Source: a virus (Duplodnaviria; Heunggongvirae; Uroviricota; Caudoviricetes). Taken from it: DNA of 64,000 nt. Numbering within the stretch: the first letter of the stretch is position 1; every line of letters starts with the position of its first letter. The notes beneath the pieces are model-generated. The model was given only the letters and a program-made list of their open reading frames with translations, was not told the DNA's origin and did no database searches. A program made the position numbers and the translations under genes. The DNA is taken from IMG/VR virus record IMGVR_UViG_2851955134_000009, one strand, 5' to 3'. This document shows, in pieces, positions 1-53,409 of this stretch.

Positions 1-1374
1 CTTACCCGTGAGACGGTAGGTGGATACTTATGTGGTGTTTATAATGATGAGTTGTACAATGCACAACTTTCTTTAAGAGATGTTGAGACCGAACTAACAA
101 AGAAAGTTACTGAATTAAAAAGTATCTTTACTGTATTAGGTAGATCTGGACAGGCTCCAGATTTACAAGGTATTGATGAGAAAATAAAGCATCTAAATAA
201 ATTGAGAGCTATTGAGAATGTAAAACTAACAAATAGAGCTATTATAACTAATGAAGAAGGGGCTGATTCTGAAAAACGAATGGGTACTATCAGGGAGGAA
301 CTCAATGAAGCTAAAAGGAAATTATCTTCCCTAAAAGATAAAATCCAATCTTTGGATTTTGAAATTTCAGATTCTGATATGTTTATATCAGAATTAAATG
401 AGCGGCTAAAAAACTTAGAACAGTCTCGAGAAACGCGTGCTATATTTGATAGTATGAATTTTGATTTTTGCCCTAGTTGTCTTTCCAAAATAGATAAGGC
501 TCATAATGATCATGTTTGTCATCTATGTAAAGTGGAACAATTAGATGATAAAGCTGAAAATCAGTTATTAAGAATGAAAAATGAATTAACTCTTCAAATC
601 AAAGAATCTCTTCAATTAATGGATAGAAGAAAAGAAGAGTTGGTAAGATTAAAGCGAGATGTTCCTTTAGCTGAGAGTGAATTAAAAAGGCTTGAACAGG
701 ATTATTTCAAAGAGTCACACTATTGGTCTTCACCGCAAGAGTTAGCTGTAGGTAAAATATATAGGGAAATTGGACGGCTTGATGAAGAAATAAAAAGAGC
801 TTATGAAGATAAGAAGCTTATTGTTGTTATTAATGAACTTCAAGAGCGTCGCGATGAACTTCAGGCGGAAAAAAATAGACTTGATGATCTTATTGAACTT
901 TATGAAGAAAAAGAGGAAGTTCTTAAAGATAAAATTTATGCTTCAGTGAGCTCAATAGCACAAGAGCTTTTACAAGAAGATTTGCCTTTGCAAAAAGAGT
1001 TTATGTCTCCTGAAAGTGTGGAGTTTAGTTTTACTGATAATAGCGTTTATGTGAATGGTAGTAAGAACTTTTCTGAAAGTTCAGCTGTAGTATTAAGGCA
1101 TATATTCCATTTGGCACTACTTTCAGCAAGTATAGAGAACCACTCAATGCGACTTCCAAGATTTATGATGTTAGATGGGATCGACGATGGTGGAATGGAA
1201 AAAGAACGGAGTCACAATTTACAGGAAATAATAATTGATGAGTGCTCACGTTATGAACATGATTATCAGTTGATATTTGCAACATCTGAAATAAATCCCA
1301 AATACAGTGAGAGTGAATATATTGTTGGTGAGTATTATTCGCCAGATAATTATTCATTGAAAATAATTGAGTAA
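1..1374 (+). CDS. SMC/Rad50-like ABC ATPase, C-terminal part (5' end outside window); candidate defence cargo
   Basis: Frame 1 is open from base 1 with no stop before the listed ATG at 52. Long coiled-coil region, CxxC...CxxC pair (FCPSC...CHLC), then ABC C-lobe-like motifs (FSESS, RFMMLDGIDD, QLIFATSE). Strongly AT-rich compared with adjacent phage genes. Confidence 0.5.
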   Translation, partial: LTRETVGGYLCGVYNDELYNAQLSLRDVETELTKKVTELKSIFTVLGRSGQAPDLQGIDEKIKHLNKLRAIENVKLTNRAIITNEEGADSEKRMGTIREELNEAKRKLSSLKDKIQSLDFEISDSDMFISELNERLKNLEQSRETRAIFDSMNFDFCPSCLSKIDKAHNDHVCHLCKVEQLDDKAENQLLRMKNELTLQIKESLQLMDRRKEELVRLKRDVPLAESELKRLEQDYFKESHYWSSPQELAVGKIYREIGRLDEEIKRAYEDKKLIVVINELQERRDELQAEKNRLDDLIELYEEKEEVLKDKIYASVSSIAQELLQEDLPLQKEFMSPESVEFSFTDNSVYVNGSKNFSESSAVVLRHIFHLALLSASIENHSMRLPRFMMLDGIDDGGMEKERSHNLQEIIIDECSRYEHDYQLIFATSEINPKYSESEYIVGEYYSPDNYSLKIIE

Positions 1375-1377
1375 TTG

Positions 1378-1411
1378 TATATGTGGCTGCTATTTTTGTA
1401 GCCACATATAA
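1378..1411. terminator. hairpin between convergent genes, possible bidirectional terminator
   Basis: Inverted repeat tatatgtggct...agccacatata with an 11-nt loop, lying between the ATPase stop and the portal stop. Confidence 0.35.
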
Positions 1412-1439
1412 ATTACTGTCTGAACTTTATTGTTTTTGT

Positions 1440-2468
1440 TCAAAGTACGTATGGTCTAAACCTAATTATTTCTATTTCAAGCCAGTCGTTTAATTGATCA
1501 AATCTTTTCTGCATGGGCACCAATTCATTGCGCATAAATACCTTACTAGCCTTCTCCACATCCCCAAACCCCCCAACATTATTCGGCAAAATTCCCATCA
1601 TCTGAGGCGGTACGCGGTGTGCAGCCATCATGTCGTCCCGGCTCACGTTCTTGATGTTCAGAAATTCATCTTTCGCTGCGACTTCTGACAACGGGATAAT
1701 CTGAAGTCCGTCCTTTTTGCCGTTAGGCGAGTACATAAACAGATTGCGGAAGTTGCCTGGACCTTTGGCGCTTTTCATCGCGTTGCGGAGGTTGTTCACA
1801 TCCTCCTGATTCTGCGCGGCGTCGGTCATGTACATGATGAAGCCTGCATGACTACCGTTGATGTAATACTTACGGCGGAACAGCGTGGCGGATTCGTTGA
1901 GCAGGGCGGATGGAATGGCAGAAAGATAGCCGGGCAGGCCGTAGATCTCCTGGTTGATGTCCGGTTCCATCAGATGAAAAATGCTGCCTTTCGTGAACTG
2001 ATACGGCTGGGTTGTCATACCGTATTGCACAAACCAGTAGGTATCCAGGTCTAACCCGCGTCGGGTGTATTTTGCCAGCGCAGGCTCAAGGGCGATAACT
2101 TCACCGAATCGGTTCGTGCGTTTCTCCAGGTAGGCGTTACCAAATACCAGATAGTCCTGCACAAAACGCGAAAAAGCCTGTTGGCTGAGCAGCGGATGAG
2201 GGATATAGGTACTGGTCAGAATGTTGCACTTTACTGCAATCGGGGAACTGTGATGCACGGCAGCGCGGAAGGTGCGCGCCAGTCCGTCAAAGCTGACGGG
2301 AGGCTCATACCAGCGATCTGTCTGAACACATTCCACATAGTCCAGCAGTTCGCGGCGGTCAAGTACTGGAACGGGATCACCGAAGCTGAATGCTTCGGCT
2401 GAAGTCTGGTTTTTATGCTGGATCTGATTCGTCGCCGCAGCGCGGTTTTTCTTACTCTTTCCCATCAA
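1440..2468 (-). CDS. Q: phage portal protein (P2 gpQ-like)
   Basis: 342 aa, size and position as P2 Q, divergent from the O-N-M operon and adjacent to terminase P. The last ~15 codons are AT-rich. Confidence 0.85.
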   Translation of the reverse strand: MMGKSKKNRAAATNQIQHKNQTSAEAFSFGDPVPVLDRRELLDYVECVQTDRWYEPPVSFDGLARTFRAAVHHSSPIAVKCNILTSTYIPHPLLSQQAFSRFVQDYLVFGNAYLEKRTNRFGEVIALEPALAKYTRRGLDLDTYWFVQYGMTTQPYQFTKGSIFHLMEPDINQEIYGLPGYLSAIPSALLNESATLFRRKYYINGSHAGFIMYMTDAAQNQEDVNNLRNAMKSAKGPGNFRNLFMYSPNGKKDGLQIIPLSEVAAKDEFLNIKNVSRDDMMAAHRVPPQMMGILPNNVGGFGDVEKASKVFMRNELVPMQKRFDQLNDWLEIEIIRFRPYVL

Positions 2469-8993: not shown

Positions 8994-9566
8994 TTACATT
9001 TCAGGTTCCGTTATGACAGTCCCAACAGGGTGATAGCGGTAGATCGTTGACAGTCCAATATCATAGATAATTGCCAGCCGCTTTCTGTCATACCCTTTCT
9101 GGAGCAATCTTGCGATCTGCTCATGCTGCTCCTTCGTCAGTTTCGGGCGACGTCCTCCAACTCTCCCTTGTGCTCGCGCAGCAGCCAGTCCTGCCAGCGT
9201 GCGCTCAACTATCAGTTCACGCTCCATTTCTGCCAGTGCACCCATCATATGAAAAAAGAACCTTCCCATCGGAGTGCTGGTATCGATTGAATCCGTCAGA
9301 CTGCGAAAATTGACACCTTTTGCGCGTAGCTCTTCTGTGAGAGCAATGAGGTGTTTCATTCTTCTACCCAACCGATCCAGCTTCCAGACCACCAATGTAT
9401 CCCCTCTTTTAAGGCACTTTAAAGCGCGTTTCAGGCCTGGTCGTTCCGACTTGGTTCCGCTCATTTTGTCCTCAAAAATCTGTTCACATCCTGCGCACAT
9501 TAATGCATTGCGTTGCAAATCTGTGTTTTGGTCATTTGTTGACACACGTATGTAGCCAATCAGCAT
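8994..9566 (-). CDS. serine DNA invertase (Gin/Pin/Hin family)
   Basis: 190 aa from MLIGYIRVSTNDQ...; catalytic-serine N-terminal domain and C-terminal HTH typical of invertases. Start placed at the internal Met because the longer track ORF overlaps the fibre segment. Confidence 0.85.
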   Translation of the reverse strand: MLIGYIRVSTNDQNTDLQRNALMCAGCEQIFEDKMSGTKSERPGLKRALKCLKRGDTLVVWKLDRLGRRMKHLIALTEELRAKGVNFRSLTDSIDTSTPMGRFFFHMMGALAEMERELIVERTLAGLAAARAQGRVGGRRPKLTKEQHEQIARLLQKGYDRKRLAIIYDIGLSTIYRYHPVGTVITEPEM

Positions 9567-52836: not shown

Positions 52837-53409
52837 TTGATCATGCTTATTGGCTATGTACGCGTGTCAACAAATGACCAGAACACCGATTTGCAACGTA
52901 ATGCACTGAACTGCGCGGGATGTGAGCGGATTTTTGAGGACAAAATCAGTGGCACTAAGTCCGACAGACCGGGGCTGAAAAAACTACTCAGGACACTATC
53001 GGCAGGAGACACGCTGGTTGTCTGGAAGCTGGACAGGTTGGGGCGCAGTATGCGGCATCTTGTTACGCTGATAGAAGAGTTGCGCCAGCGTGGTGTGAAT
53101 TTCAGAAGCCTGACTGACAGTATTGATACCAGTACCCCAATGGGCCGTTTCTTTTTTCATGTCATGGGTGCCCTGGCTGAAATGGAACGCGAACTGATAG
53201 TTGAACGTACCAGGGCAGGGCTGGCTGCAGCTCGTGCCAAAGGCAGAGTAGGTGGACGCCGTCCTAAGTTGACCACCGAACAGTGGGCACAGATTGGGCG
53301 TTTACTCGAGGCCGGAGAATCAAGACAGCGTATTGCACTGATTTTTGATGTAGGCGTTTCTACCATTTATAGAAAATTTCCGGCAAATAAGATCAATGAA
53401 TCCCCCTGA
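52837..53409 (+). CDS. serine DNA invertase (Gin/Pin/Hin family)
   Basis: 190 aa, MIMLIGYVRVSTNDQ...; most residues match the Mu-like invertase at 8994-9566 by visual alignment. Confidence 0.85.
   Translation: MIMLIGYVRVSTNDQNTDLQRNALNCAGCERIFEDKISGTKSDRPGLKKLLRTLSAGDTLVVWKLDRLGRSMRHLVTLIEELRQRGVNFRSLTDSIDTSTPMGRFFFHVMGALAEMERELIVERTRAGLAAARAKGRVGGRRPKLTTEQWAQIGRLLEAGESRQRIALIFDVGVSTIYRKFPANKINESP

Follow-up and report, generated by a model that had tools for sequence, protein, structure and literature searches.

We have analysed a stretch of 64,000 nucleotides (nt) of tailed-virus DNA (Caudoviricetes; IMG/VR record IMGVR_UViG_2851955134_000009), the whole of which is called the window here, and within it the gene that enters at the first base and lies beside the portal gene Q of a P2-like prophage. 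On the + strand, frame 1 runs without interruption from base 1 as far as the TAA stop at 1372-1374, and the translation of these 457 codons contains many heptad-like repeats of charged and hydrophobic residues. Window 1-1500 is 100% identical to Escherichia coli AR_0085 (NZ_CP029741.1), whose flanking record is referred to as L001; a window coordinate equals the L001 coordinate minus 12000. An earlier reading of the window, referred to below as the original prediction, had expected partner genes upstream and asked for that DNA. They are in fact present in the AR_0085 flanking sequence, where the operon consists of four intact open reading frames (ORFs), the last of them being lmuB, with its 5' 531 nt and the other operon genes lying upstream of the window. 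The genes of the operon and the parts of LmuB encoded in the window are the following.

L001 10227-10409, operon direction: small unannotated gene, 60 amino acids (ORF, GGAGG, conservation)
L001 10423-10989, operon direction: LmuA-like protein, 188 amino acids, with the N-terminal motif QSGNRVRNGSIVGGSQTN and a CTD9 domain (Pfam)
L001 10983-11483, operon direction: LmuC (MC5), 166 amino acids (Pfam)
L001 11470-13374, operon direction: full coding sequence of LmuB, 634 amino acids (PADLOC, fold)
Window 1-1374, + strand: 3' three-quarters of lmuB, residues 178-634 of 634 (ORF and translation, identity to NZ_CP029741.1, LmuB profiles, fold match)
Window 469-528, + strand: double CxxC, putative zinc hook at the coiled-coil apex (Cys invariance, model position)
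Window 1069-1083, + strand: ABC signature-like FSESS (F534-S538), invariant in the family alignment and opening helix 536-556 of the model
Window 1162-1191, + strand: Walker B strand FMMLD, then G570 and IDDGG (family alignment; strand 565-568 in the model)

The lmuC gene overlaps the reading frames of both lmuA and lmuB. RefSeq names only three genes, as 'ABC-three component system protein' (188 amino acids), 'ABC-three component system middle component 5' (166 amino acids) and 'ATP-binding protein' (634 amino acids). The open frame of at least 457 codons, the coiled coil, the CxxC pair and the C-terminal ABC lobe that had been read from the window were all found again in the ORF, the alignment and the model. 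The GC content is 0.33 for 1-1374 (0.22 at third codon positions) and 0.29 for the spacer between lmuB and Q, compared with 0.525 for the bulk of Q, 0.56 for the terminase gene P and 0.54 for the whole window, so that lmuB is, as had been stated, far more AT-rich than the structural genes (0.33, whereas the P2 genes beside it have 0.52-0.56). The sequence of window 1-1500 occurs in 4 of the 5,426 complete E. coli genomes, with the portal gene adjoining it in every case, and a megablast of the same segment against the phage collection gave no match, the cargo being absent from sequenced phage isolates.

Full-length LmuB matches the PADLOC LmuB profiles with E = 1e-43 and near full-length coverage, and the part in the window does so by itself with E = 2.6e-25. 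Searching the PDB by sequence with this profile yielded coiled-coil noise only, and it took a fold search to link the protein to solved LmuB structures. In an AlphaFold2 (AF2) model built on 22 homologues (predicted local distance difference test, pLDDT, 76.6), a pair of long helices (268-327 and 360-419), antiparallel to each other, divides the ABC head in two, and the best PDB matches found by Foldseek are the Lamassu LmuB chain 9hqu_A (2e-19) and then 9uxh_F, 9hqx and 9nyg_B, the E values of the top Lamassu LmuB chains ranging from 2e-19 to 1e-14; Rad50, SMC and JetC form a second tier. Because of these fold matches, the LmuB profiles and the CTD9 and MC5 partners encoded beside it, we assign the gene at 1-1374 with great confidence, from sequence and model, to lmuB of a short type II Lamassu (ABC-three component, ABC-3C) system, in which LmuB would serve as the DNA sensor for abortive infection. 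The PADLOC and Foldseek matches thus bear out the earlier proposal of an SMC/Rad50-like ATPase belonging to an anti-phage system. Two of the families then put forward have fared differently: Lamassu is correct, but Septu is not, the PtuA matches being local to the P-loop. In fact, both Septu (PtuA/PtuB) and Gabija (GajA) were rejected, as their P-loop-local matches have E values of 1e-5 to 1e-4 and the operon contains no HNH or UvrD partner.

A housekeeping SMC, SbcC or RecN homologue in a conserved host context, the counter-scenario raised with the original prediction, has virtually no probability. The N-terminal P-loop of LmuB is weakly similar to SMC, Rad50 and RecF-type models, but the best NCBIfam scores against housekeeping SMC, SbcC, RecN and Rad50 are 18-47 bits for cut-offs of 300-1000 (for example, 34 bits against 700) and cover the P-loop only, so this candidate was rejected. 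Its presence in so few E. coli genomes, inside a prophage and at a GC content of 0.33 in a window of 0.54, the ABC-3C CTD9 and MC5 proteins of the same operon and the closest structures, which are those of Lamassu LmuB, all argue against it as well. The original prediction had also held the system to be unclassifiable and maybe uncharacterised. This has been superseded by the upstream DNA, which classifies it as short type II Lamassu/ABC-3C; the uncharacterised content is not the family, but it does exist in another form, namely a LmuA without an effector domain and a conserved, unannotated fourth gene.

The Walker A motif GRNSSGKTT, FSESS and His582 are invariant in the LmuB alignment, and the motifs of the ABC C-lobe follow one another as signature, Walker B, D-loop and H-loop (FSESS...FMMLDGIDDGG...H), with FMMLD itself at nt 1162-1176. 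The stretch M567 L568 D569 G570 I571 D572 D573 G574 G575 is likewise invariant among the 22 homologues, and this means that the usual position of the catalytic Glu (window 1174-1191 region) is taken by an invariant Gly, giving D569-G570. The Walker B of short Lamassu has been described as hhhhD followed by Q/S/T/E (Haudiquet et al. 2025, bioRxiv 10.1101/2025.04.02.646746), and the D-G variant may hydrolyse ATP very slowly or have its catalytic base relocated. The two CxxC motifs, CPSC at nt 469-480 and CHLC at nt 517-528, lie 12 residues apart (C334/C337 and C350/C353), and all four Cys are invariant in the homologues, which are ~55% identical. In the AF2 model they are located in the low-confidence loop that joins the two long helices, which is the apex of the coiled coil. 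Short LmuB proteins with 0, 1 or 2 copies of a CxxC zinc hook have been reported (Haudiquet et al. 2025), and a zinc hook is a reasonable interpretation of the CxxC pair in view of the alignment and the model.

With regard to the partners, LmuC matches the Pfam MC5 family over its full length (E = 1.6e-57) and the PADLOC LmuC profile weakly (8.7e-4), and the LmuA-like protein matches the Pfam CTD9 domain of ABC-3C systems with E = 2e-30 over profile positions 1-113 of 113. Residues 1-73 of the latter have no match in Pfam, NCBIfam or PADLOC and contain no enzymatic effector domain, such as Cap4, Mrr, Sir2, a lipase or a protease, and residues 1-38 are predicted to be disordered. The short length is general, as 38 of 38 homologues of the CTD9 protein have 171-208 amino acids. 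That the system is a short type II Lamassu/ABC-3C with a CTD9-type LmuA and an MC5-type LmuC is, by these assignments, near-certain. A 'Clade O' of short Lamassu has been described in which LmuA 'seemingly lost the effector domain' while LmuC and LmuB are intact, with more than 100 sequences from more than 40 species, and no explanation for the loss was offered (Haudiquet et al. 2025); this description matches the CTD9 proteins of 171-208 amino acids, which are found in many proteobacteria. The same operon is also carried by P2-like prophages that look complete and by non-phage defence islands beside type I restriction-modification genes. A promoter scan gave nothing above chance, and TTGTTA-18-TAGAAT at L001 10168-10197 is a candidate site.

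The small ORF upstream of lmuA has its own GGAGG Shine-Dalgarno sequence, stops 13 nt short of lmuA (gaps of 5-28 nt were measured at other loci) and encodes, in the E. coli locus, the protein MEYLSEIISFLAGAGISWAITFNVYNYKVKQICMNQSSPIQNGNTVTNGSIVGRDQTNSH. We have found an equivalent ORF of 56-63 amino acids directly upstream of lmuA in 30 of 30 loci examined, which come from E. coli, a Serratia P2-like prophage, Pseudomonas aeruginosa chromosomal islands, Burkholderia pseudomallei (a defence island beside type I restriction-modification genes), metagenome contigs and 24 IMG/VR viral contigs. It is kept even where the identity of the CTD9 protein falls to 31% and that of LmuB to ~55%, and its ratio of nonsynonymous to synonymous substitution rates (dN/dS) is 0.03-0.21. 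A profile search of 1.84 billion representatives returned only small proteins, of 58-76 amino acids, with the same layout of a hydrophobic helix, a polar linker of ~15-25 residues and a C-terminal motif. The sequence begins with M-(E/D) in 14 of the 15 complete small proteins aligned, and the helix follows the pattern (Y/W)-L-(S/T)-x-I-x-x-F-(L/I)-(A/V)-G-x-G within an uncharged stretch of ~18 residues. Basic residues stand directly after the helix, which fits a cytoplasmic C-terminus that LmuA could reach.

The small gene has been called in a few assemblies and never named. It is missing from the RefSeq annotation and from defence-finder models, and because of this such systems are scored as incomplete or effector-less. 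No report of it was found in the literature searched, which did not cover the ABC-3C founding paper, and the main text of Haudiquet et al. (2025) describes neither an upstream small gene nor a shared motif, the words 'membrane' and 'transmembrane' having no occurrences in it. We rejected a frameshift in a single gene as the origin of the small ORF and lmuA, because their relative frames vary by lineage and each has a separate ribosome-binding site; furthermore, both ORFs are intact in all 30 loci and the motif that they share, described next, is kept through different codons.

In its last ~20 residues, the small protein resembles the N-terminal ~20 residues of the cognate LmuA-like protein, and the two stretches vary together from lineage to lineage, as in the following pairs.

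E. coli: small protein C-terminus QNGNTVTNGSIVGRDQTN; LmuA-like N-terminus QSGNRVRNGSIVGGSQTN
Pseudomonas: small protein C-terminus VTRQENNNVGGDMAGGDIHK; LmuA-like N-terminus LTRQSGNVVQGDMAAGNVIK
Locus L035: small protein C-terminus STTIKGNRAGGDIAGRDVNK; LmuA-like N-terminus TTTVRDNTVDGDLAGRDVIK

In 16 lineages, the ungapped matches between the members of a pair extend over 11-22 residues with 8-15 identities (38-82% identity), an example being locus L034 with 13 identities in 17 positions. Their BLOSUM scores are 43-84, compared with 16-23 +/- 4 for composition-preserving shuffles, none of the 300 shuffles per pair scoring as high, and the mean score is 57.9 for cognate and 38.1 for non-cognate pairs. 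Different codons are used at 68 of the 106 pair-identical residues. Gene conversion or recent duplication was rejected on these grounds as the source of the likeness, which is therefore kept by selection on the peptides. Over 462 residues the motif consists of G 17%, N 15%, V 11%, Q 8%, I 5%, K 4%, L 0.9% and P 0%, and it is also rich in S and D. This bias matches the one described for BASS motifs, which are ~25 amino acids long, enriched in Q/N/G/V/I, depleted in K/P/L and 43-56% identical within a pair (Dyrka et al. 2020).

All these data suggest that the small protein is probably an integral fourth component of the system and its missing effector, and while the Lamassu family is of a known kind, the effector module appears to be an undescribed variant of it. 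In NLR-based signalling, oligomerisation of the receptor nucleates an amyloid fold. In canonical Lamassu, the LmuB dimer and LmuC hold LmuA by its C-terminal domain, which serves for oligomerisation (Li et al.; two structural studies of 2025), and binding of DNA ends frees LmuA, which then oligomerises (same two studies). The N-terminal effector of LmuA touches nothing else in the complex and can be exchanged freely, and lipase LmuAs with CTD8 or CTD9 are predicted to form higher-order cyclic oligomers (Li et al.). By analogy with the solved CTD7-type complexes and given the Pfam assignment, the LmuB dimer with LmuC would sequester the CTD9 adaptor and let it go on binding DNA ends, or aberrant replication structures, from an invading phage. 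The freed adaptor would then oligomerise and cluster its N-terminal motifs, and these might nucleate a beta or amyloid-like fold that templates the C-terminal motif of the 60-residue protein, a step that we propose because the gene architecture is common with that of Bab/Agp and HET-S/NWD2. The hydrophobic helices of the small protein could finally assemble in or on the inner membrane and disrupt it, killing the cell and aborting the infection. As a whole, a LmuB that belongs to a four-gene Lamassu with amyloid-type coupling to a small membrane-type effector is the best explanation that we can offer, and we hold it with a little more than even confidence. The parts differ in this respect, as coupling of LmuA to the small protein by amyloid-type templating is a tentative proposal, somewhat short of even, and we are more tentative still about the full statement that the SMC sensor of a Lamassu signals by prion-like templating, an effector-less LmuA oligomer turning a 60-residue protein into a membrane-disrupting killer.

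Several points weigh against this explanation. Defence, toxicity, membrane damage and fibril formation are predictions for this clade, and its correspondence to 'Clade O' would be by the published description of that clade rather than by its sequence list. The role of CTD9 as a sequestered oligomerisation domain is inferred from the Pfam assignment and from what the literature reports for CTD7, because the model of the CTD9 protein is poor (pLDDT 56.8) and has no Foldseek match below E = 1, and is thus uninformative with respect to the solved LmuA C-domains. The D-G Walker B may mean that ATP hydrolysis, on which other Lamassu depend, is impaired or organised differently in this LmuB. As for the small protein, neither Pfam nor the profile search detected homology to Bell or Bab domains or to any BASS family that has a name: five small proteins scanned against Pfam at E up to 10 had chance matches only, and a word search of 5.8 billion proteins together with the 1.84-billion profile search returned small proteins of the same family alone, with no longer relatives and no bridge to Bell/Bab. 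The helical bundle of the Bab/HET-S type (HeLo/Bell/BB) that sheathes helix 1 is absent from a protein of 56-63 residues, constitutive membrane insertion is uncertain for a hydrophobic stretch of ~18 residues followed by a basic residue, and the shared motifs could mediate a simple 1:1 beta-strand interaction.

This last possibility leads to an alternative in which the small protein would be a membrane anchor or an inhibitor and not the killer, its motif pairing 1:1 with the LmuA-like N-terminus by beta-strand augmentation. Lamassu could then be tethered at the inner membrane where the phage DNA enters, or the adaptor held inactive, and the true output would lie elsewhere, such as DNA clamping by LmuB or an effector acting in trans. 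The paired motif and the strict synteny show coupling and leave its direction and stoichiometry aside, the basic residues after the helix fit an N-out/C-in anchor with a cytoplasmic motif, and the small protein has no sheath domain, all of which this alternative accommodates. However, the operon contains no other candidate effector and every characterised Lamassu kills via LmuA; moreover, a proline-free motif of ~20 residues rich in G/N/Q/V fits amyloid signalling motifs rather than typical docking peptides, and its layout, at the effector C-terminus and the receptor N-terminus, is that of Bab/Agp. We consider an anchor or inhibitor unlikely.

Somewhat less likely again is a three-gene, effector-less Lamassu in which the small ORF is dispensable, the complex blocking phage DNA ends or the CTD9 oligomer being toxic, with the small ORF as a leader or regulatory peptide whose likeness to LmuA derives from an old partial duplication. 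This would agree with the three genes annotated by RefSeq, with the description of the clade simply as effector-domain loss by Haudiquet et al. and with the binding of DNA ends by LmuB alone in the solved complexes. Nevertheless, a dispensable ORF is at odds with its presence in 30 of 30 loci, over which LmuB diverges to ~55% and CTD9 to 31% identity, and with its dN/dS values; the lineage-specific co-variation with LmuA is held at the peptide level via different codons, and a leader peptide is not expected to keep a hydrophobic helix and a motif matched to a partner. There is very little probability that the locus is an inactive, decaying remnant in a defective prophage that is itself split by a Mu-like insertion. 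The truncated lysB, the ~37-kb Mu-like insert in the prophage and the atypical D-G Walker B could be taken in that sense, but the four ORFs are intact, and the D-G Walker B, like the other ATPase motifs, does not vary among 22 homologues drawn from many genera and is therefore to be seen as a family trait and not as decay. In addition, apparently complete P2-like prophages and non-phage defence islands carry the same operon.

The position of the operon in the prophage was examined with reference to the cos site and to the portal gene, and the corresponding features of the window are these.

Window 1370-1417, no strand assigned: hairpin with a 20-bp stem between the convergent lmuB and Q (minimum free energy -29.4 kcal/mol, z = -6.6, 0 of 200 shuffles as stable), probably a bidirectional terminator or insulator
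Window 1440-1544, - strand: AT-rich mosaic last ~35 codons of Q, right boundary of the variable cargo (GC 0.34 against 0.525, identity decay)
Window 1545-2468, - strand: conserved body of the P2-type portal gene Q, the full gene being 1440-2468 (portal annotation; 91-94% nt identity to Peduoviridae phages)

The gene order of the prophage is int, DUF4041, CI, cox-side genes, A, two small genes (one of them DinI-like), a gene for a 141-residue protein, cos, the operon and Q P O N M L. A literal P2 cos, GGCGAGGCGGGGAAAGCAC, was not found in L001 with up to 3 mismatches, and the site was located by alignment to Escherichia phage Cartapus: its 53 nt at L001 10094-10146 (window -1906 to -1854) are 53/53 identical to the annotated cos of that phage and represent the P2/186 cos variant GGCGTGGCGGGGATACGAG. 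The operon, situated between cos and Q, thus comes first when the packaged genome is read from its left end. The old and tin genes of P2 are found on the gpA side of cos. The proposed P2 hotspot position therefore stands for the cos-proximal region between gpA and gpQ, but not for the old/tin side, since the operon is on the Q side of cos. The P2 defence hotspot has been defined as precisely this cos-proximal region (Rousset et al. 2022, PMC9122126), and Lamassu members have already been noted in prophage hotspots such as that of P2 (Millman et al.). The operon is an AT-rich cargo inside the known gpA-gpQ hotspot, in the sub-slot between cos and Q, and in this way a rare defence operon (4/5,426 E. 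coli genomes) has been placed in a specific part of the hotspot. The gene for the 141-residue protein (L001 9354-9779, - strand) is on the gpA side of cos and on the opposite strand to the operon, and its product has a signal-peptide-like N-terminus and no family match. Further cargo of the prophage is a DUF4041 protein encoded between int and CI (L001 900-2576, - strand).

In a four-way alignment with three related phages, nt identity reaches 0.9 or more rightward of ~1545, lies at 0.5-0.7 in 1440-1540 and is ~0.25 beyond the Q stop, and megablast homology to related Peduoviridae sets in at a point that differs between phages (window 1464, 1504 or 1521). Because the C-terminus of Q can still be aligned as protein across the four phages while its nt identity decays, the boundary is a mosaic junction of the homologous type and not an illegitimate fusion, as judged from these alignments. 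The recombination junction that had been proposed within Q fits the decay in 1440-1540 when understood as homologous mosaicism; the AT-rich tract at the 3' end of Q is also as stated except for its extent, which is not ~15 but ~35 codons (nt 1440-1544, GC 0.34). The four phages carry four different cargos, each with its own AT-rich Q tail, and the 3' end of Q thus behaves as part of an exchangeable cassette. The Q-side slot of Klebsiella phage 4LV2017 (L037 458-2441) contains a hypothetical protein and an RNA-directed DNA polymerase (retron- or DRT-like), that of phage Cartapus (L002 162-860) a DUF4145 gene between cos and Q, and that of E. coli p13P477T-2 (L038 711-2385) a frameshifted gene of 558 amino acids (a pseudogene), and beside each of these alternative cargos Q has an AT-rich version of its own of the last ~30 codons.

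The P2-like prophage is split by a Mu-like transposable prophage of ~37 kb at window ~8,920-46,310 (record 4184360-4221750), with genes for a DDE transposase, an ExeA/MuB-like protein, Gam, Mor, a DUF935 portal, its own tail proteins and an invertase. Its insertion point is between the P2 R/S tail-completion genes and lysB/lysC, of which lysB is annotated as a pseudogene that has been truncated; the P2 genes restart at window ~46,540 and finish with ogr at ~60,700 beside ybjL. The split makes it probable that the P2-like element is defective, with its cargo in effect fixed in the host. Two invertase genes of the Gin/Cin type, one per element (Mu-like and P2-like), are located at window ~8,994-9,566 and ~52,843-53,409. 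Each adjoins oppositely oriented tail-fibre and tail-fibre-assembly genes, which makes two invertible host-range segments ~44 kb apart that could in principle recombine with each other.

Lamassu systems are present in ~10% of prokaryotic genomes, and their activation logic, in which an SMC clamp keeps an oligomerisation domain sequestered, was solved only in 2025, a whole clade being left without a known output. If our proposal is true, it would explain the action of the 'effector-less' Lamassu clades, and Lamassu effectors would be exchanged not only as enzymatic domains in fusion but also in split form, with a motif as the means of recruitment. Two immune mechanisms that have been studied apart so far, DNA sensing of the SMC type and amyloid signalling, would be joined, and there would be a first amyloid-signalling module outside NLR/TPR-type receptors. 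In the literature searched, we have found nothing that joins amyloid signalling with Lamassu. Furthermore, the small protein would be the smallest known executioner of the HET-S/Bab kind, formed by a bare pore-lining helix and a motif.

The closest structurally solved systems are DdmABC of Vibrio cholerae and LmuACB of Salmonella enterica (9hqu, 9hqx, 9uxh, 9nyg), with which the AR_0085 operon has in common the lmuA-lmuC-lmuB order with overlapping frames, a SMC/Rad50-like LmuB of ~630 amino acids with a folded coiled coil, an MC middle component, a CTD on LmuA and carriage by mobile elements. Those systems are of the Cap4-CTD7-MC3 type, with a nuclease N-domain on LmuA, and the V. cholerae LmuB lacks a zinc hook. 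In contrast, the AR_0085 operon combines a CTD9 LmuA that has only an N-terminal motif of ~25 residues with MC5, two CxxC, a D-G Walker B and a fourth gene. With Rad50/SbcC, LmuB shares the split ABC head, the antiparallel coiled coil and an apical CxxC of the zinc-hook kind, but its coiled coil is much shorter, it has two CxxC and no Mre11/SbcD partner, it is distributed in the accessory genome and it is co-operonic with ABC-3C genes.

For the effector module, the nearest likeness is to Bab/Agp of E. coli, a validated system of abortive infection by amyloid signalling in which Agp activates Bab by way of a 20-residue BASS11 motif, and Bab cannot do without D2 and G11 of its N-terminal helix (Ibarlosa et al. 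2024, bioRxiv 10.1101/2024.11.07.622273). As in Bab/Agp, the fungal HET-S/NWD2 and the bacterial Bell/BASS-NLR pairs, the genes are adjacent with the effector first, and one copy of the motif ends the effector while the other opens the downstream partner. Further similarities are an effector that starts with a hydrophobic helix, with an acidic residue in position 2 and an internal glycine, the G/N/Q/V-rich, proline-free motif of ~20 residues, the pair identity (38-82% here, 43-56% for BASS pairs) and the prophage or defence-island settings. Unlike in those systems, the partner here is the CTD9 LmuA-like subunit of an SMC-type complex and not an NLR/STAND or TPR receptor.

Finally, a 'Hydrolase + SMC' Lamassu in a P2 remnant of REL606 (E. 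coli B; Rousset et al. 2022, pFR106) is likewise a Lamassu/ABC-3C in the cos-proximal gpA-gpQ hotspot, and we have used it as a control. In REL606 (L040 4606-5520) this element retains a truncated portal gene and a virion-morphogenesis fragment, with the Lamassu intact between gpA and cos, and an ORF of 50 amino acids annotated between lmuA and the MC4 gene resembles a detached N-terminus of the middle component. It differs from the AR_0085 operon in a LmuA of 407 amino acids with an alpha/beta-hydrolase (AHSMGG) domain, in an MC4-type LmuC and in lying on the gpA side of cos. The REL606 locus has no small gene with the hydrophobic helix and motif, and its LmuA no N-terminal motif. This comparison supports a connection between loss of the effector domain and presence of the small gene.

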